Virus record (IMG/VR): IMGVR_UViG_3300001041_000010
From: an uncultured virus (IMG/VR IMGVR_UViG_3300001041_000010)
Lineage: Duplodnaviria > Heunggongvirae > Uroviricota > Caudoviricetes
DNA length: 55,365 nt
Strand: one strand, 5' to 3'
The first letter of the stretch is position 1; every line of letters starts with the position of its first letter. The notes under the pieces were generated by a model. It was not told where the DNA came from, ran no database searches, and saw nothing but the letters and a program-made list of their open reading frames with translations. Below are positions 29,712 through 37,864 of the stretch, piece by piece. A program made the translations under genes and the position numbers.

Positions 29712-30000
29712 TCTTTTTCTCCTCTTCGTTAAAAAAGTAACATGCAATTCCAGCAATAAGGAGCATAGCGATATATGGAATCATCTTAATATCGCCATAG
29801 TTAATAGTACAACCTAATAAACTGCCGAGAAATAAGAATAATAATACACTCCACCGAGTCCACCGAATAAACTTAAGGCTCCTATTAATCTCAGCAATAC
29901 GATGTTGATGATCTAAATTAGGCTCATGAGATATCTCTGGCTGTTTATAACAACGACGTCGATAAGCTTTAGAGTCTTCGATGACTAATATCTTTGCCAT
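29698..30000 (-). CDS. two-TM membrane protein
   Basis: AGGAGG RBS before MAKILV; two hydrophobic helices. Confidence 0.65.
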   Translation of the reverse strand: MAKILVIEDSKAYRRRCYKQPEISHEPNLDHQHRIAEINRSLKFIRWTRWSVLLFLFLGSLLGCTINYGDIKMIPYIAMLLIAGIACYFFNEEEKKNEPN

Positions 30001-30020
30001 AACAGCCTCCTTGAATATAG

Positions 30021-30133
30021 TGAGGGTTTGATGGTATCGAACCATCAAGGTTAACCAAACGGCATAAACTTCCCCGCTCTCGGCAGACTTGAACTGCGTA
30101 GACCTAACGTATCCTGGCACCTGCCAACCCTCA
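30021..30133 (-). ncRNA. tRNA-like RNA with two T-arm-like hairpins and a GGAAGUUUAUG loop
   Basis: UGAGGGUU/AACCCUCA closing stem; GCAG-UUCAAGU-CUGC and GAUGG-UUCGAUA-CCAUC hairpins. Confidence 0.7.
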
Positions 30134-30141
30134 TGTAGTTA

Positions 30142-30360
30142 TTATAGAGCTTTTTCTGGCGCTTTAAGCCAAACTTCTTGAACATTACCAGAGGCTCCAC
30201 AGGCAAGACAAGTAATTGAATAATTATCAGTTTTACTATTCTTACCGTCTTTTTGTACTAGTCCGTGATATTTTGTTTTAGGACTCGCACAAAAAGGACA
30301 ATAAAGTATCGTTGCCTTAAGTGTATTTTTAGCAAAGATCTTAAGTAGATTTCGCATCAT
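30142..30360 (-). CDS. small zinc-ribbon protein
   Basis: CPFC..CLAC. Confidence 0.6.
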   Translation of the reverse strand: MMRNLLKIFAKNTLKATILYCPFCASPKTKYHGLVQKDGKNSKTDNYSITCLACGASGNVQEVWLKAPEKAL

Positions 30361-30365
30361 ACAAA

Positions 30366-30665
30366 TCACTCCTCGTCTACGTATCTCTTACGAAGTGATA
30401 TAGGTTTATTCCAAACTGAATCTGGCTCATCATCATCGTCATCTTGTTCAAAGCTTAAGACGAATGTAATACCAGCTTTGAGTAAGAAAATACCGATTAA
30501 GACACCTGGAACTAATAAGAATAGAAGATGCTTGACCTTAATAACATTCTTGAATAAATCAAGAATGTTATCAGGATTTAAAGCATCTTCCACCATCATC
30601 CAAATGCCTGCAACAATAGTTATGATCAGTAGTATGATGTTAATAATTATACCGGCTGTAATCAT
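30366..30665 (-). CDS. two-TM membrane protein
   Basis: Two hydrophobic helices, acidic tail. Confidence 0.65.
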   Translation of the reverse strand: MITAGIIINIILLIITIVAGIWMMVEDALNPDNILDLFKNVIKVKHLLFLLVPGVLIGIFLLKAGITFVLSFEQDDDDDEPDSVWNKPISLRKRYVDEE

Positions 30666-30687
30666 TGATAACCTCCTTGGATTTAAT

Positions 30688-30855
30688 TGGGGTGATCGAC
30701 GAGAATTGAACTCGCAACTCTGCCACAGGTCTTCTTAAAGTACGTATTGCTTTCACAACCGTCATGTCAAGCCATGTTAGGTAGCGATCCTATCACGTTC
30801 CTCCTGACTATCAGCTTTCTGCAAGACAGCTTCTACCGATTGAAATACGATCACC
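30688..30855 (-). ncRNA. tRNA-like RNA (His-type G-1:C73 acceptor, CCA) with ~100-nt insert replacing the anticodon loop
   Basis: GGUGAUCG/CGAUCACC-CCA; D arm; CUGUC/GGCAG stem; T arm GCGAG-UUCAAUU-CUCGU. Confidence 0.75.
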
Positions 30856-30862
30856 ATGTTAA

Positions 30863-31117
30863 TTAACGAATTAGTGAATCTTCAACGCGTTTTCCTTCGC
30901 AATGAAACGCCAGAACAATCTTTTGTAGTTCCGGGCGTTTTTCTGGATGTTTTTCCATAATTTCAGCAACTAATTTAGGAATGTCGTTTTCCTTAGAGAA
31001 TTCCATGAGCGCATTTTGAAACTCTTTAATAGTACTCATAGTTTGCCGGTTTACTTCGGCAATTGCTACTCCCTTATTGATAATATCATCAAGTTCAGCC
31101 ATTAGATTACGATCCAT
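30863..31117 (-). CDS. hypothetical protein
   Basis: GAGGAGG RBS. Confidence 0.65.
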   Translation of the reverse strand: MDRNLMAELDDIINKGVAIAEVNRQTMSTIKEFQNALMEFSKENDIPKLVAEIMEKHPEKRPELQKIVLAFHCEGKRVEDSLIR

Positions 31118-31450
31118 GTTTATTCCTCCTCTCTATTCATTTTTCGGATTACTTCCTCTTTACTAAGAAAGCGACCCTTCTTCATATCATAGACACTAGG
31201 ATAATCGCCTATGAGTTCTCTCACAAATTCAGGAAATATTTCGGCTTCAGCTTGCTCGTCTTTAATCATGATGTTCCAACTTTACATACGTTGAACACGT
31301 AATGTACTCAAAATAACCTGGGTCACCAGGCATAAGTATATGATTAGGTACAATTTCAAGAACGTTAGCACGACAGAAGCCACTGTAATTAAAATCACAC
31401 TTAACGATATCGCATTTAACGATCAATAAAATCATCTCCTTTAATTACGT

Positions 31451-31611
31451 CGGCAAGGGAAAGATTCGAACTTTCGAACATCACTCGTAGATAGTTTAGA
31501 GCTCAGTACCGGTTGCTGGGAAATAGTTTTGACGATCATAAACTTCCTCCGTCTAGACCTTTAACTATCGTATCCCTTGACTAGCGCCTTCAACCGCTCG
31601 GCCACCTCGCC
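31451..31611 (-). ncRNA. Ser-type tRNA body with large insert carrying the GGAAGUUUAUG loop
   Basis: GGCGAGGUGGCCGAGCGGUUGAAGGCG...GAAAG-UUCGAAU-CUUUC-CCUUGCC-G; no normal anticodon arm. Confidence 0.75.
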
Positions 31612-31626
31612 ATGAGAATAATAAGT

Positions 31627-31869
31627 TTAAGCTTTATGATACCTTTTGCCGTCCCTAGTTGCAATAGCTCTTCCAAGAGCTAACTCGTGACCTATCTTTT
31701 TATTGAAGACATCTTCAAAACAACATTTGGCAATCCCCTTAGAGCCGTCTGGCAAAATGACGACGGTTCTATTACCAGAGTAGATCACCTGAGCAAGAAC
31801 TGGAACATTGACTTCGACAAACTGAACCTCTGCTTCTTCAATACAATTAGCACCCGACGTGTTTCTCAT
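31627..31869 (-). CDS. small phage protein (GIAKC..EDVFNKKIG..LALGRA)
   Basis: GAGGAGG RBS; motif common in phage ORFs. Confidence 0.7.
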   Translation of the reverse strand: MRNTSGANCIEEAEVQFVEVNVPVLAQVIYSGNRTVVILPDGSKGIAKCCFEDVFNKKIGHELALGRAIATRDGKRYHKA

Positions 31870-31894
31870 AAATCCTTCCTCCTCTTAATTAATA

Positions 31895-32014
31895 TGGCAC
31901 CGAGGACGGGATTTGAACCCGCCTATTACGTTTACCGCTCCCCATAGAAGATTACATCTCTTTACAGCGGAGAGGCGCGCCGGATACGCTCCCTAACCAC
32001 TTGGGTACCTCGGT
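31895..32014 (-). ncRNA. tRNA-like RNA with extended anticodon arm
   Basis: ACCGAGG/CCUCGGU-G-CCA; T arm GCGGG-UUCAAAU-CCCGU; ~55-nt insert. Confidence 0.75.
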
Positions 32015-32142
32015 GATAATTGCTTGGAACGACTCACCATATCATATCGCTCCCGTCCCCTTCGCCACTTATCTCTACGTCTATTTTAGGGGCTTTCCAT
32101 CTAAAATTAATAGTTAAGATAAATCTTAACTAAAGATAACAA

Positions 32143-32216
32143 TGGCAGCCGTCTGAGAGAATTGAACTCTCCCTTCGCTATGAAGAGTAGCGCGTGCTTC
32201 CTTACACTATCCGGCC
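32143..32216 (-). tRNA. atypical tRNA, anticodon loop CUCUUCA (CUU, nominal Lys), mismatched acceptor stem
   Basis: CGCUA/UAGCG anticodon stem, GAGAG-UUCAAUU-CUCUC T arm, CCA end; C at position 37. Confidence 0.55.
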
Positions 32217-32220
32217 ATGA

Positions 32221-32294
32221 TGGATTCTGTTGCGAGAATCGAACTCGCCCTTCACTGCCTGGTAGCAGGGCGTGCGTCCGTACACCAATAGAAT
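32221..32294 (-). ncRNA. tRNA-like RNA with distorted anticodon arm
   Basis: GCGAG-UUCGAUU-CUCGC T arm, CCA end; CUGC-UACCAG-GCAG in place of a 7-nt loop. Confidence 0.6.
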
Positions 32295-32316
32295 CATGTA
32301 ATACGTTGAAATAATT

Positions 32317-32350
32317 TACATAGCGTCTCTCTTGAGAGACGCTATGTAAC
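32317..32350. terminator. long inverted repeat TTACATAGCGTCTC-TCTT-GAGAGACGCTATGTAA
   Basis: Near-perfect palindrome just after the coiled-coil gene. Confidence 0.55.
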
Positions 32351-32360
32351 GATTAAATCT

Positions 32361-33380
32361 TTACTTCTGAGTTTTATCTTTCACTAAGGCCTCAAGACTA
32401 TTAACCATTCGCGAATTGGCTTGAGATTCGATAGCTGCCGTAGCGGTTTCCTGAATTTTGCTATATGCAGTTTTCAAATCTTCATTTAGTCTCGTTAATT
32501 CGTCATTCGCTTTATTGAGCTGAGCCTCTAGCATGGCAACCTTATTTTCAAGTATCGTCTTTTCAGAAGTTGTCTTGGATTCGATTGCTCTCTTTTCAAA
32601 TCCGAAACTTGTTCCAGCTTTCTTTTCGCCTTCAGCTTCTCCAGCTTTTCTGGCAGCGTCAACTAATTGCGGAATTTCTTCCACTTTAGCCTTAAGGTCG
32701 TCAATCGTTTCTTCCCTTGTTGTTACCAGTTCAAGTCTTGTTTTGACTTCACTTTCAAGTTCCGATAACTGTTTTTCACGTACCTTTTTCTCATCTTCCC
32801 AATCGTTATCGTCAAGTTGCTTCTTCCTTGCGAAGTCGTACGTGTATTCTTCTTGATCCCTGGCACGTTTCCGTTTAACTTCTTCGTCTTGCAGATAGGT
32901 TTCATTCAAATGAGCAGCTTTTTCAGCCTTCAAATCAGCTTTTAATTGATCAAGTTCAGCCTGCATTCTTGCTTTGTCTTCATCGAAAGCAGCCTTAAAC
33001 TTATCTTTGGTTTCCCTATTTGCATTGACCAACGCAGTTAAGGCGAACGCTTCTTTTTCAATGTCAAACAGCTCTTTCAGTTCGGATTCTTTGAGGGCGA
33101 TTGCTTCTTGTAAATCATTGAATGTTTTAATTTCTTCCGTAAAACTATTCGCTAAATTACCAAGTATGCTGGCGACACTCTTCTGCAATTTTGCAATTTG
33201 GTCTTCAACATTAAGACCAACAGTTTCAGTGGCTTTAGTCAAAGTCTCTCCGGCTTTTTTCATGGACATTTCTTTGGCTGGATCAACTATGATACCTTCA
33301 CTAGCTTTTAACAATTCCAAGGCCTCGGAATAAGCAGATAAGATTTCCTTCTTCGTGTTGTTTTCGGTTACGATTTTCAT
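32361..33380 (-). CDS. long coiled-coil protein
   Basis: 339 aa, heptad-rich; motifs NTKKEILSAY and RDQEEYTYDF. Confidence 0.8.
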   Translation of the reverse strand: MKIVTENNTKKEILSAYSEALELLKASEGIIVDPAKEMSMKKAGETLTKATETVGLNVEDQIAKLQKSVASILGNLANSFTEEIKTFNDLQEAIALKESELKELFDIEKEAFALTALVNANRETKDKFKAAFDEDKARMQAELDQLKADLKAEKAAHLNETYLQDEEVKRKRARDQEEYTYDFARKKQLDDNDWEDEKKVREKQLSELESEVKTRLELVTTREETIDDLKAKVEEIPQLVDAARKAGEAEGEKKAGTSFGFEKRAIESKTTSEKTILENKVAMLEAQLNKANDELTRLNEDLKTAYSKIQETATAAIESQANSRMVNSLEALVKDKTQK

Positions 33381-33576
33381 TTCTTTTCCTCCTCATATTC
33401 TTTACAACTAGATAATATTTAATAAGCCATCAGGCTATATACAAAACGCCTCGAAGAGACGCTATGTAAGCAAATTAAGATCATATAGGCTTGAGTTATT
33501 TAAGCTCAACTTAGCTCATTGTCCTGCAATTACTACAGGCTACAGAGTACCTATATAATCAAAACTAACAAATGAT

Positions 33577-33660
33577 CGCGGAAGTGCAGAATTGAACTGC
33601 AAGAGTTTAATACTGATGTCTGACGCATCTAACATATTTCTCTGTCACCAAGACCTTCCA
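33577..33660 (-). ncRNA. degenerate tRNA-like RNA
   Basis: GGAAG/CUUCC stem; UGCAG-UUCAAUU-CUGCA T arm; enlarged central arm. Confidence 0.5.
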
Positions 33661-33666
33661 GATGAT

Positions 33667-33748
33667 TGGGCAGGGCAAAGGGATTCGAACCCCTGATAGC
33701 GATCATAAACTTCCTTCGCTCGTTTTAAACCACTAAACTATACCCCGC
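33667..33748 (-). ncRNA. tRNA-like RNA (G-1:C73, CCA) with 13-nt anticodon loop AGGAAGUUUAUGA
   Basis: AGCGA/UCGCU stem; AGGGG-UUCGAAU-CCCUU T arm. Confidence 0.8.
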
Positions 33749-33761
33749 ATGAGAATAATAT

Positions 33762-33957
33762 TGTAGCGGATAGAAGGGCTCGAACCCCCAACCGTATATA
33801 AGCTACTTATATGCTTTCGTCCGGACTAATCACATACTCCTCACTTATACAGTTAATCTCCAAAGAATTACTTTATTCATGTGATCAACATGGTTTATAT
33901 AACTCCGTAATTAACCGCTATCTCTCGATAGCCGCTCTACCATTGAGCTATATCCGC
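33762..33957 (-). ncRNA. tRNA-like RNA with ~130-nt multi-hairpin insert
   Basis: GCGGAUA/UAUCCGC; canonical D arm GCUC-AAUGGUA-GAGC; T arm; GAGA tetraloop instead of an anticodon loop. Confidence 0.75.
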
Positions 33958-33966
33958 AAAATTAGC

Positions 33967-34423
33967 TGGCGGACCCGACGGGGAGCCGCCCCCCGTGTCC
34001 AGAATGTCTACCCTTTGTCCCTGTTACTACTGAGAAATCTGAGTGTCTAACCTACTGGAATTGCAACCAGCGCTTATTAAACCCTCGCCTCCACCACCTG
34101 CATTATACGATGCAGGAAACATGCGTTAATAGACGGGACTCGAACCCGCACGGGACTTTCGTCTTCCACATTTGCATGCAGCCATAGTTAATTCTTTGAC
34201 CTCGCTTTATTTCAAGCGTGCGTATGCCAACTTCGCCACTATTAACTACCCAGTCTTCGACCTTCAGGAGTCGTTGGGTACTCTCCGTTTTAGGGCTGTA
34301 GTTCCTAATTAATTAAAATTAGGCAGCGTTTTTCATAGGTGTAGCATTTGCTTTAATGTCGTCTTTCCGACTGTCATCTCAGAGGACATACTCTATTCAC
34401 CCTGTCGAAACTAACTCGGGCCC
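33967..34423 (-). ncRNA. ssrA: tmRNA with tag peptide ANATPMKNAA* (34319-34351) and a nested tRNA-like element
   Basis: 5' GGGCCCG..UUUCGACAGGG; 3' CUGGACACGGG..CCCGUCGGGUCCGCCA with G3:U70; tag ends in AA. Confidence 0.85.
34124..34246 (-). ncRNA. Leu-type tRNA-like element nested within the tmRNA
   Basis: GUUAAUAG/CUAUUAAC stem; D arm UGGCGAAGUUGGCAUACGCAC; T arm GCGGG-UUCGAGU-CCCGU. Confidence 0.75.
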
Positions 34424-34536
34424 ATAATTCAGTGAGTTTCCTCACTAAGGAGAATACCAGATAAGGAGTGGGGTAATGACTCCTTAAACCATAAAGGGTA
34501 ATGGCTCTGATATTCTATTTAGTGAGGATATCATCA

Positions 34537-34755
34537 CTAAGATCGTCTAAACAATCTAGCAAACCATGATAACCTCTTAGGTTTAATAATTGGCACTGGA
34601 TAGACCTCTCTAGGAGAAGTTGCTATAAAATGACCACATCGTAAGCAACTCCATCCCGTTGGATGAAATACTTTACTATCGATAAGGATCGTGATGTTAT
34701 TTAGTGTCGCTTGGGTAAAAGAAGAGCATTCATTTGGACATTTCTCATTTACCAT
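34537..34755 (-). CDS. small zinc-ribbon protein
   Basis: CPNEC..CLRC. Confidence 0.55.
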   Translation of the reverse strand: MVNEKCPNECSSFTQATLNNITILIDSKVFHPTGWSCLRCGHFIATSPREVYPVPIIKPKRLSWFARLFRRS

Positions 34756-35150
34756 TTTTCAACATAAGTCTCGAATGTAAGTTCTATGAGATCATCATCA
34801 TGAGCCTTACAACGAAAGGCATACGTACGAGAACCGTATTCATCCTGTGATTCATACGATAAATCACCATATGTTCGATGATAATAGACAGCGCCCTTAC
34901 GGAACCAGCCGTTCTTTTTCTTGGCAGTGTTTATAATCAGCTCGATGGCTAAATCATTATTCTCTTCGATAGCGTTGATAATAGCTAGAGCTTCTGCACA
35001 CTGAGGGTGATAATTAGCTAATGGTAATTCTATATCACCTCCAGGATGATCGCTGTACTCTTCAGCAGCCTCAGCAATATGACTCTTAATTTCTTTAAAG
35101 TCAATTTCAACTTTGAAACGTTTGTTATCAACAATACGTTCGATTAACAC
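34749..35150 (-). CDS. hypothetical protein
   Basis: GTG start after AGGAGGTGG. Confidence 0.65.
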   Translation of the reverse strand: MLIERIVDNKRFKVEIDFKEIKSHIAEAAEEYSDHPGGDIELPLANYHPQCAEALAIINAIEENNDLAIELIINTAKKKNGWFRKGAVYYHRTYGDLSYESQDEYGSRTYAFRCKAHDDDLIELTFETYVEKW

Positions 35151-35299
35151 AAATCCACCTCCTAAGTTATTTAAGTTTTCTCCACCCTTCCCGAAAGGGA
35201 AGAAGGGTGGAGAAACCACTTGTGATCCATTTAAAGGCTAGTTGTAATCGCCACAATTAGCTATAAAGACGAACGCTAGTAGGCCAGCGTCTTGCACAA

Positions 35300-35606
35300 T
35301 AGGCGGCGTTTCAACCCGCTTCCCGCCGCAAGGGTTTCATATAAGCATCTTCCATCCACTTTAGCTCCATGTGGATCTTATTCGCATGCCCGTCGCGCCG
35401 GTAATTGTGCGCCGCGTGGCCTGGTGTTTCAACTCACTCTAACACCTGTGAGTTTATCTTCGGCTATTTTCAACCCTATTTCATCAGCCCTTCGGGTTAT
35501 GCGGTATGGTCTTGGCGTTTTCAACTACTCTCAACGCCTACGTAGTTCTCACATCATCTTCATTAAGCGTCTCAGCCCGTCTCACGCCTATATCAAATCG
35601 GGCTTA
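35300..35606 (-). ncRNA. tandem array of ~6 predicted H-type pseudoknots
   Basis: Each 32-41-nt unit has two interleaved stems, e.g. AACUCAC/GUGAGUU plus GGUGUU/AACACC. Confidence 0.7.
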
Positions 35607-36043
35607 TCCATAATAAATAACGATAATAGTACTACTCTAAATCTATAGGGCCGTAAGCTTCCTCCCATATAAATTATACCAACTGTAGTAATATTCTTAT
35701 AACATGTACTTAGCGTTCCCAGCTAAGCACCCTGGATCTAGAAATACTCCTAGATCACTACTATTAACTGGAATTTCATGATGTATTTAGCCTTGCAATA
35801 GCCTTATACTAGAATTTCCAGAAACGACCGCCTCCACATTACTAATCAAACTTAAGTCGAGGTACGTCCATTCCAGACACCCTTAAGCATGATAGCGATC
35901 GACATCCACTCCTGTACCGGAGGAGCTACATGTTACGTTTAGTGATTTATTACTTCACTAACCTCAACGCCAAGAATCATAAATATCAGATCGTCATCCG
36001 ATAGATCAATCCAGTGGCGCTGAAGTTAACAAAGTATCTATTA

Positions 36044-36070
36044 CTATTATATAACATTTTGTAACATAAA
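36044..36070 (-). promoter_or_regulatory. phage promoter (TGTTACAAAATGTTATATAAT) upstream of a non-coding RNA block
   Basis: Same motif as the other phage promoters; followed by ~850 nt without a credible ORF. Confidence 0.7.
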
Positions 36071-36154
36071 TACATTGTTTTGTTGGCGGCCCAATGACTA
36101 AGGGCCGCCAAATACTTACTAAACAGTTGCACTCTAAATTTATAAAATAGCAAT

Positions 36155-36223
36155 GATGCATTGCTGGACTCGAACCAGCACTCAACGCGTCAACGTCAGC
36201 TCTGCCAATTAAGCTATCTGCAT
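36155..36223 (-). ncRNA. pseudo-tRNA with shortened anticodon arm
   Basis: D arm GCUU-AAUUGGCA-GAGC; T arm GCUGG-UUCGAGU-CCAGC. Confidence 0.6.
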
Positions 36224-36229
36224 TTGAAT

Positions 36230-36300
36230 CATACAATACAAGGAGTCGAACCTTGTGCTCACCCTTACGGGGCAGCTCTACGCGTTAAGCTAATTGCATG
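36230..36300 (-). ncRNA. pseudo-tRNA with GUAA tetraloop instead of an anticodon loop
   Basis: AUGCAAU/AUUGUAU; CCC-GUAA-GGG; ACAAGG-UUCGACU-CCUUGU. Confidence 0.65.
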
Positions 36301-36354
36301 AAGTCTTATTTAAAACATAACACGTTACCTCCTGTAAGAATTTATTTAACCACA

Positions 36355-36647
36355 TGGAGTCCAGAGACTTACACTCTGGAATGTTTGGAGACTATTGCAA
36401 ATTCGTCTCACTGGTGTGTTTTAGATCGAAGGTCATAACTCTAAGTTCTGGTTCCGTGGCACACCACCCATTCACGGACCAAGATCGGAATACCTTTACG
36501 TGTATAGCTAACACACAACCGATACCTTTAACGTCTTTTAGTTATTATTAATTATCACAAGACATAAACTTCCTCTTGTGTGCTTAATCCCGACCATAGC
36601 CTATCATAAAGCCGATAATTAAATATAACTCGTATTCCGTCACTCCA
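36355..36647 (-). ncRNA. ~290-nt structured RNA with tRNA-like terminus and a GGAAGUUUAUG loop
   Basis: UGGAGU/ACUCCA closing stem; CCAGAG-UGUAAGU-CUCUGG T-like arm; CACAAGA-GGAAGUUUAUG-UCUUGUG hairpin. Confidence 0.6.
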
Positions 36648-36648
36648 T

Positions 36649-37228
36649 ATAACTTTACCATCGCTTTACTCTACTGTACCGCTACCCTACACCACTTCGC
36701 CTTGCCGTTACTCTACTCTACCATACCGTTACATTACCCCTCGTTGCGTTACCTTTGCACTACCCTGCTGTACCGTTGCACTACTTTTCCTTACCACAAC
36801 CGTACTTTACCACGCCTTGACGCGACTATACCCTACGCTACTTTACCATGACTGAACACTACCGCGCCTCGCCTTACCATAACATTACAGTACCATACCC
36901 TACTTTACCTTGACGCAACAGTATTCTACTTTACCTTTACACACACAGTACAATAATTCACAACACCATACCATGACGGAACACCACTAGGCTAGGCCTT
37001 ACCACTGCAATACCCTGCTTAACTTCACTCCACCGCAACTTTACCCTACCCTACTTCACCGCTACGCTACCTTACTTCGCCATTACGTTACCATGCTGTA
37101 CCATTACAGGACTGGGCTAGACTCTACCATAACATCACTTCGCTTTGCCTTACCGTGACTGAACCTAACCCTACAATCACGAGACAACACCGAGCCTCAC
37201 TTTGCCATAACCCCGCTCAACTATACCA
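36649..37228 (-). repeat. non-coding array of NGY-NN pentamers (candidate guide-RNA array)
   Basis: Near-strict 5-nt period (GGT/AGT/GGC/TGT/CGT plus a variable dinucleotide), with one extra base every 4-6 pentamers; starts right after the RAMP gene stop codon. Confidence 0.85.
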
Positions 37229-37864
37229 TTACTTTGCTGTGGCTAATACTGTTTGAGAAATCGACTCAATAACAGTAAAGCTGTTAACTTTAAACTGTCC
37301 AAAACTACCATTCCGGAATTGGCCTAAACCCTTAAGTTCTCCGAAGTTAAGGATCTCTTTAATCGTATCACTCGTAATTTCCTTATGGTTTACCAGTGTG
37401 ATATCGAAAGATAATTTTGCACCAGCATGAACAACATCACTCTTGGCTAGTGTTACTCGTGGACCCTGCGCGGTCATAGCCCGTAATGGTCGCTCGAAAA
37501 CTGAATCACATTTCATGATATTAACGCCATTGCGGACAAATCGAATCTTGCGAGGCGTCACAAAGATGAAGTTTTCAAGCTTAGATTTAAGATTCTTAAT
37601 CTTAAGTTGATCCTTTAGATTGTTACCGGCATCACGCAGAAAACCAAGTATCATGTAATTATAGATAAATAAGCCATCTTCGTCTTCCATAAACGTTGTC
37701 CATCCGGAAGTATCGTCTTCAACGATATTCTGAGCTTCTTCGGCAGCTACTTCGGGTATCACTTTAGTGGCTATATATTTTGTATAAACGTCACGATTCT
37801 TTGGAACAGTTCCTAGTTGATCTTCAAGCAGCTCAATTTCTACTTTCATTACGGTCTTTTCCAA
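37229..37864 (-). CDS. stand-alone RAMP / Cas7(Csm3)-like RNA-binding protein
   Basis: N-terminal strand KVEIELLEDQLG, internal ILGFLRDA, C-terminal Gly-rich loop FGELKGLGQFRNGSFGQF; no other cas genes in the window. Confidence 0.8.
   Translation of the reverse strand: MEKTVMKVEIELLEDQLGTVPKNRDVYTKYIATKVIPEVAAEEAQNIVEDDTSGWTTFMEDEDGLFIYNYMILGFLRDAGNNLKDQLKIKNLKSKLENFIFVTPRKIRFVRNGVNIMKCDSVFERPLRAMTAQGPRVTLAKSDVVHAGAKLSFDITLVNHKEITSDTIKEILNFGELKGLGQFRNGSFGQFKVNSFTVIESISQTVLATAK

Follow-up and report, generated by a model that had tools for sequence, protein, structure and literature searches.

A tRNA-shaped unit is nested within the tmRNA gene of an uncultured phage, downstream of the tag and inside one gene, as had been proposed from the letters alone. 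The arrangement is real, and the composite gene is a new variant of tmRNA gene architecture, so far unique. The window (the whole stretch of DNA analysed, 55,365 nt) makes up the final 55 kb of virus record G000, which has 117,365 bases and an estimated completeness of 52%. The initial annotation had left room for an assembly chimera; against this, a 48.5-kb contig of depth 80 covers 29800-37300 with zero differing letters and no joint that skips the nested unit (the run is possibly the source sample, so it rules out an assembler join and is no independent sampling), and a stretch identical to the tmRNA region is also found on a 229,618-bp contig (L172). The DNA is present in groundwater and sediment sequencing runs, with no RNA dataset among the listed runs containing it. 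A virion protein matches Bacillus phage 0305phi8-36 (32%), Moorella phage MTATph1, three other Bacillus phage records and a 206-kb Paenibacillus replicon (36%), the best database relatives being 31-42% identical; because these relatives are Bacillus and Moorella phages and a Paenibacillus replicon, the host presumably belongs to the Bacillota.

The features referred to below are as follows.

30021..36300, minus: cluster of 12 delimited tRNA-shaped units, tmRNA and nested unit included.
34423-33967, minus: tmRNA gene, standard order, divergent; 457 nt, or 335 nt without the nested unit.
34398..34423, minus: tRNA-like domain, 5' half, with acceptor strand (G3), D loop and 5' strand of helix 2a.
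34356..34395, minus: candidate pseudoknot 1 (pk1), 5+5 bp, ending 10 nt ahead of the resume codon.
34319..34345, minus: tag reading frame ATPMKNAA plus stop, resume codon GCT (from ARAGORN and upstream context).
34304..34323, minus: helix 5, containing the stop codon; pair probability 0.93-1.0.
34247..34286, minus: pk2-position domain; its 3' strand, 34252-47, is the RNase P leader of the nested unit.
34246-34125, minus: nested tRNA-shaped unit, 122 nt, with 8-bp acceptor, D arm (34236-20), variable arm (34163-54) and T arm (34149-33).
34218-03, minus: hairpin at the anticodon position of the nested unit, 5 bp with 6-nt loop, followed by about 40 extra nt.
34087..34120, minus: pk3-position domain, homologous to viral tmRNAs L022 and L026 (score 40 against a shuffle mean of 19).
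33967..34006, minus: tRNA-like domain, 3' half, with helix 2a strand, GAC connector, 6-bp T arm, acceptor strand (U70), G73 at 33970 and CCA.
33765..33957, minus: next gene, a 193-nt tRNA-shaped unit with a large insert replacing the anticodon arm.
33667..33748, minus: tRNA-shaped unit whose anticodon position holds a 13-nt loop; G-1:C73 and CCA are present.

The 457-nt tmRNA with a G3:U70 acceptor described initially is upheld by helices, GAC connector, CCA, tag and a shuffle-tested descriptor. The acceptor has 7 bp including G3:U70 (34423-17/33977-71) and the 3' CCA is encoded; helix 2a has 7 bp (34404-398/34006-000); the T stem has 6 bp and the loop GGCGGCU; a stemless D loop and the GAC connector join both gene ends. 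Predicted pair probabilities for acceptor and helix 2a are 0.95-1.0, and the predicted fold of the composite RNA has a z-score of -2.5; all folds given here are predictions on one sequence, with no covariation. A descriptor pairing both tmRNA ends gives one match in the 117-kb record and none in 100 dinucleotide shuffles. The coding half lies upstream of the acceptor half, so gene order is not circularly permuted.

Standard tools miss the gene. Default ARAGORN does not call it, and a call is obtained only at threshold 80 with the nested unit removed. The flanks were expected to align to the Rfam tmRNA model as one gene; RF00023 (47 bits needed) does not call the window gene, whereas both ends pair under the descriptor. 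Searched separately with tmRNA_permuted, the two halves score 23.1 and 11 bits (cut-off 47). A profile built from 15 viral tmRNAs matches at the two ends only, the 3' end at E 9e-8 (a circular score, the 15 having been picked by that end) and the 5' tRNA-domain half at E 0.19, the second-best match in the whole record; it fails to align across the interior, with the unit present or removed. A 6-bp GGCRG T arm is common to the window gene and 33 viral loci, of which all 20 tested pass an Rfam tmRNA cut-off; loci L022 and L029 likewise score above one. The composite is thus classed as a tmRNA-derived variant; that it works as a tmRNA we infer, and only infer, because A73 and the Rfam model score both fail.

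The tag had been given as ANATPMKNAA plus stop. Frame and end stand, the proposed start at 34351 being in frame, but translation probably resumes two codons later, at GCT 34345, giving A-ATPMKNAA: this codon, called by ARAGORN, has A at -4, which the GCA two codons earlier lacks. The short open tag ends in Ala-Ala and its stop sits within helix 5. The earlier tmRNA description omitted the discriminator: N73 is G (33970), with no variant letter across contigs, against A in 33/33 viral comparators. A73 and G3:U70 are key determinants for AlaRS (PMC3968760, PMC9976931). A strict pseudoknot scan of 34392-34340 finds no pk1, where the same scan finds one in 5/6 comparators; a wider scan gives the 5+5-bp candidate from 34395, which is mutually exclusive with the distal helix 2 (34388-84/34020-16; predicted probability 0.93-0.98). 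In E. coli a hairpin can substitute for pk1 (PMC3968760). One pseudoknot candidate is found at the pk2 position and nine at pk3/4 (single sequence, unranked by covariation). Given G73 and a pk1 that is a candidate, tagging may be absent altogether. Two observations on other viral tmRNAs are recorded here. L022:1100-1533 and L028 have long tags of 24 and 37 encoded residues (by the resume codon chosen here). L043 (match 901-1073, minus) is an apparently minimal tmRNA, its two tRNA-domain halves together spanning about 83 nt, and in this resembles phage DS6A with its tRNA-domain-only form.

The nested module, described initially with an 8-bp acceptor, D arm, canonical T arm and no standard anticodon loop, has all of these features by fold and ARAGORN. 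Its location is as described; its bounds, given as 34124-34246 (123 nt), are better set at 34246-34125. The acceptor pairs 8/8 in Watson-Crick fashion, including a His-type G-1:C73 pair; CCA and a 7-nt anticodon loop are absent. Charging by way of that pair would require that the unit be freed and given a CCA. The term Leu-type suits the D arm (3-bp stem, G18G19, A20a) and the variable arm, short as drawn and long (Leu-type) by the tRNA-Leu test, but not the identity elements: A73 and A15:U48 are missing, with C73 and G15 with U48 in their place (Leu determinants and the His G-1:C73 rule as in PMC9976931). A tRNA-shape descriptor gives three matches in the record (positions not itemised) and none in 100 shuffles, and the Rfam scan lists no RF00005 match to the unit. 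A cloverleaf is plausible: folded alone, it is predicted at -33.3 kcal/mol against a minimum of -36.2, that is 2.9 above; within the full RNA, predicted probability is 0.45 for the nested acceptor and about 0.2 for its T stem. A 10-base complement is seen by eye between the nested unit and the next gene.

What the unit displaced was assessed from lengths and from viral tmRNAs lacking it. Without the unit the gene has 335 nt, within the 310-441 nt spanned by 15 standard viral comparators. The 34 bases 3' of the unit align to L022 and L026, gut-type viral tmRNAs that keep the downstream domain without a nested unit, with score 40 against shuffle means of 19; this is reached by 0 and 1 of 300 shuffles, respectively. 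Eight comparators were aligned to the downstream domain, and among the other six only L005 came near (10/300 shuffles). The alignment with L022/L026 includes one compensatory pair (by eye), and in L022 both flanks of the nested unit align across a short linker. The two are distant, since the 5' flank fails to align, and the empty site is therefore approximate. On these alignments the nested unit is an insertion in a linker rather than a replacement of pseudoknots; the suggestion of a permanent structural replacement is not supported, given that 335 nt remain and domains persist on both sides. Comparison with other phage ssrA genes, as had been advised, was thus productive in part: L022/L026 show a unit-free form, but no tmRNA was found in seven related phage records. 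Signs of an island integrated at ssrA were not found: no duplicated gene end or target duplication occurs among the listed 20 of 37 direct-repeat families, nor an integrase in 102 protein scans covering part of the ORFs. A sigma-70-like site at 34129-34102 (10/12, best of 8) was treated as chance, shuffles giving 10.6.

The nested unit has relatives in its surroundings. The record contains thirteen T arms, all of them on the minus strand from 36255 to 30046; 12 units were delimited, the T arm at 33601 being left out since no clear acceptor was found. A readable anticodon in a 7-nt loop occurs only in the unit at 32216, whose acceptor pairs 5/7. On the predicted folds, the nested unit is one of the phage's family of tRNA-shaped units, most of them unable to decode, a kinship left out of the initial annotation. 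CCA is encoded by 6/11 units other than the nested one. A Watson-Crick -1:73 pair not involving U is present in six cluster units, against 6/91 canonical tRNAs in the fetched loci (P 5e-5, post hoc); counted with U-1, -1:73 pairing (10/12, P 0.09) is not unusual. G-1:C73 is common to the nested unit and the units at 33748 and 30855.

Further observations concern the cluster itself. The unit at 30021-30133 (minus) holds a second T-arm-like hairpin (30097-30083), so that nesting may recur. Four copies of the 11-mer GGAAGTTTATG exist in the record, all in the cluster and on the minus strand (36563-36573, 33704-33714, 31537-31547, 30063-30073; shuffle mean 0.09, maximum 1); each copy lies in a stem-loop, three of them within tRNA-shaped units. 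It resembles a ribosome-binding site plus ATG and may be a motif that tRNA scaffolds present for protein binding or antisense pairing. Two related terminator-like hairpins (32316-32349 and 33445-33469) with a common 15-base repeat flank a 339-aa gene that interrupts the cluster; no relative of the 339-aa protein was found. Beside the cluster, about 770 nt at 35215-35985 (minus) contain no minus-strand ORF of at least 50 aa and fold with z -3.9 (0/20 shuffles as stable), with no Rfam match but a hairpin-level microRNA one at the edge: a candidate large phage ncRNA. The stretch 36641-37864 (minus) holds a 211-aa RAMP/Cas7-like gene, which has an Atlas neighbour annotated 'RAMP superfamily' (score 0.96) and no Pfam or PHROG match, and after it a tract of about 590 nt that contains 50 GGY triplets and shows a 5-base periodicity (0.51 at lag 5); gene and tract together look like a VIPR system, by analogy with the system described in bioRxiv 10.64898/2026.04.26.720920. 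Three loci with a RAMP-like gene gave no tRNA call.

Tracing the kind beyond this phage, insert-bearing tRNA shapes are also present in related records G001, G004 and G005, and a D-arm/T-arm pattern derived from the nested unit matches 92 viral stretches; among the 80 examined, 58 are distinct and 37 have at least 6/7 acceptor pairs. With so many viral stretches matched by the pattern, RNAs of the nested unit's kind are common in phages. None of these 80 of 92 lies upstream of a tmRNA end, and the interior of the nested unit scores no better against the 58 other insert-bearing units (best 24) than shuffles do (22.7). The viral Leu-type units (L055-L134) have unrelated interiors, and 24 of the 58 distinct ones have at least 8 contiguous acceptor pairs, some 11-12.

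A second nested case was sought with patterns that fix spacing and loop sequence, so that other nested forms can be missed. Patterns placing a T arm upstream of a tmRNA end give 0 nested cases in 18 and in 8 viral loci; the same type in metagenomes gives 89 matches, of which 80 were examined, the only nested case being L172 (same phage); a pk3-position motif has at least 119 matches, and the 80 loci inspected show no tmRNA end. By blastn the region has only 22-39-base tRNA-arm matches in phages and none in plasmids. The seven related phage records yielded no tmRNA, nor did the 18 kb surrounding the Paenibacillus replicon's tRNA-like match. Among eight related records the sole match above the tmRNA cut-off is chromosomal; four weak RF00023 matches were rejected, lacking the tmRNA 3'-end pattern and reading as coding DNA.

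Whether the nested unit is cut out depends largely on its leader. Bases 34252-47 pair with 34280-75 (probability 0.93-0.99), and they are paired in both candidate folds, hairpin or H-type pseudoknot (the sole one found there), which use the same helix. Mean unpaired probability at leader positions -2 to -5 is 0.04, against 0.34-0.97 in the other 11 units, and freeing four leader bases has a predicted cost of 4.0 kcal/mol. RNase Z works poorly prior to 5' maturation. A leader hairpin shuts off RNase P processing, about four free bases being needed (PMC7897497); the blocking hairpins described there have 11-15 bp.

Our favoured reading, held tentatively and somewhat short of even confidence, is a one-piece tmRNA carrying a tRNA-shaped passenger; it is preferred over excision because the RNase P leader is locked by pairing. 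The single-stranded linker that joins the pk2- and pk3-position domains of a phage tmRNA gene would have received a tRNA-shaped gene, without anticodon, from the phage's own set. The cluster would be transcribed as a single precursor and the outer tmRNA ends matured by host RNase P and 3' nucleases; the inner unit, with leader sequestered and CCA absent, would be cut slowly or never, leaving a one-piece 457-nt RNA as main product. This RNA would bind host SmpB, be alanylated less well than host tmRNA owing to G73, and add the A-ATPMKNAA tag, the nested unit forming a second tRNA elbow that sticks out of the pseudoknot ring and is unneeded for trans-translation. The pk2-pk4 region of tmRNA accepts replacement (PMC3968760), L022/L026 align without the unit, and GOLLD RNAs carry covalently linked tRNAs; by analogy these suggest that a passenger may be borne. 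Against it, the T arm, G18G19 and perfect acceptor, all the parts that RNase P and RNase Z read, are kept, which is hard to explain if they go unread, and the abutting helix, whose base consists of two A-U pairs, is just 6 bp long, versus the published 11-15 bp.

Excision had been proposed initially as another route to a two-piece tmRNA, and we consider it unlikely, although the site suits it: in natural two-piece tmRNAs the break lies downstream of the tag (PMC3978253), as it would here. RNase P would cut 5' and RNase Z or exonucleases 3', giving from an unpermuted gene a 177-nt coding piece and an acceptor piece of about 158 nt, joined by helices 1 and 2, and freeing an RNA whose G-1:C73 end is of His type. 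The elbow is the point from which RNase P measures, and CCA-less precursors are substrates of RNase Z (PMC4919913); the acceptor is 8/8 Watson-Crick and the T loop canonical; two free-standing siblings have G-1:C73 too; and one permuted tmRNA has a tRNA-Ala within its removed spacer (PMC11915505). The sequestered leader, paired up to the cut site, tells against excision, as do the missing CCA, a cloverleaf above the predicted minimum with its T stem at about 0.2 in the full RNA, and the lack of a second case in three pattern scans, hence no sign of repeated selection for such a route. Equally unlikely is the fuller form of this proposal, a fourth tmRNA gene form in which RNase P and RNase Z excise a His-type tRNA mimic to leave a working two-piece tmRNA, the leader hairpin or pseudoknot serving as a timing switch.

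Rather improbable, in our estimate, is a decoy that has kept the tRNA shape and lost the job, titrating SmpB or another tRNA-binding factor and dampening host trans-translation, with the nested unit as a second elbow. G73 against A73 in 33/33 viral tmRNA ends would fit this, A73 being key to AlaRS (PMC3968760), and so would neighbours mostly without a usable anticodon, six units with a non-U Watson-Crick -1:73 pair against 6/91 canonical tRNAs (post hoc), and SmpB not being found in 117 kb of the record; a tRNA-domain-only form is reported to inhibit tmRNA, perhaps by titrating SmpB (PMC4131195). A pure decoy would, however, have no need of G3:U70, the resume context, an open tag ending AA, helix 5 and a candidate pk1 at 10-nt spacing, all of which are kept. 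A recent accident, in which recombination in a cluster rich in tRNA arms put the unit into ssrA and left a decaying, functionless composite, is very unlikely: occurrence in one phage only, no tmRNA seen in the seven related phage records or the Paenibacillus replicon, the missing Rfam call and G73 would agree with it, but the core helices of both RNAs are all intact, the fold z-score is -2.5 and the insertion misses every essential element.

Three tmRNA gene forms have been described, standard, intron and permuted (PMC11915505). The largely open-access literature consulted gave no report of a standard gene that houses a tRNA-shaped unit. The nearest precedents are a permuted tmRNA with a tRNA in its spacer and GOLLD RNA with its embedded tRNAs. 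The window tag and tmRNA 5' end are absent from one text supplement of PMC11915505. Phage tmRNAs are known in Bacillus phage G and mycobacteriophages (PMC4131195), and usual tmRNA length is 230-400 nt (PMC3968760). The window gene shares with standard tmRNA (RF00023) gene order, G3:U70, GAC connector, helix 2a, tag ending AA and helix 5, and differs in the 122-nt tRNA-shaped insert, G73, a length of 457 nt and the missing Rfam and default ARAGORN calls. With the two-piece permuted tmRNAs of alpha- and beta-proteobacteria and cyanobacteria (RF04321) it shares the site after the tag, where they are broken and the unit is nested; the gene itself is unpermuted, and two pieces would arise by hypothetical excision. 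Permuted tmRNA GCA-2688965__sp002688965.2 also has a tRNA body inside the gene, but there an intact tRNA-Ala lies in a spacer removed anyway, and here a non-decoding unit lies in the body of a standard gene (PMC11915505). Intron-form tmRNA is likewise an interrupted standard-order gene, with a group I intron in the T loop (PMC11915505); the window insert is tRNA-shaped, 122 nt and far from the T loop, which is intact, and the Rfam scan gives no match to a group I intron family. GOLLD RNA (RF02032) resembles the window gene in a tRNA shape within a larger phage RNA, in a tRNA array and possibly shielded from processing (PMC12286853, PMC12990946), but here the carrier is a tmRNA and the passenger has no anticodon. 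No RF02032 match is present in the window; one GOLLD RNA was seen in L089:2302-2760 (minus, 191 bits), with a tRNA inside at 2623-2693 and an insert-bearing tRNA-shaped unit nearby. RNA C and RNA D of phage T4 (rnaC, rnaD), which come from a phage tRNA cluster, are stable RNAs that have tRNA ends but do not decode. Likened by description only, they share with the window unit a non-decoding tRNA shape; the T4 ones are free-standing and the window unit is nested.

The finding comes from the DNA of one phage, which limits its weight. Beyond this case a detection gap is apparent: neither default ARAGORN nor Rfam picks up the gene, and standard calls overlapped by a tRNA of more than 42 bits are discarded in the tmRNA database pipeline of the 2025 survey (PMC11915505), so that nested forms would be under-counted. 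If the RNA is left uncut, the pseudoknot ring would be able to bear a 122-nt folded cargo; if the unit is excised, the gene would represent a novel route to two-piece tmRNA. Because one sequence can be assayed both cut and uncut, it offers a natural test of the idea that a tmRNA moves through the ribosome more easily once its ring is broken after the tag.
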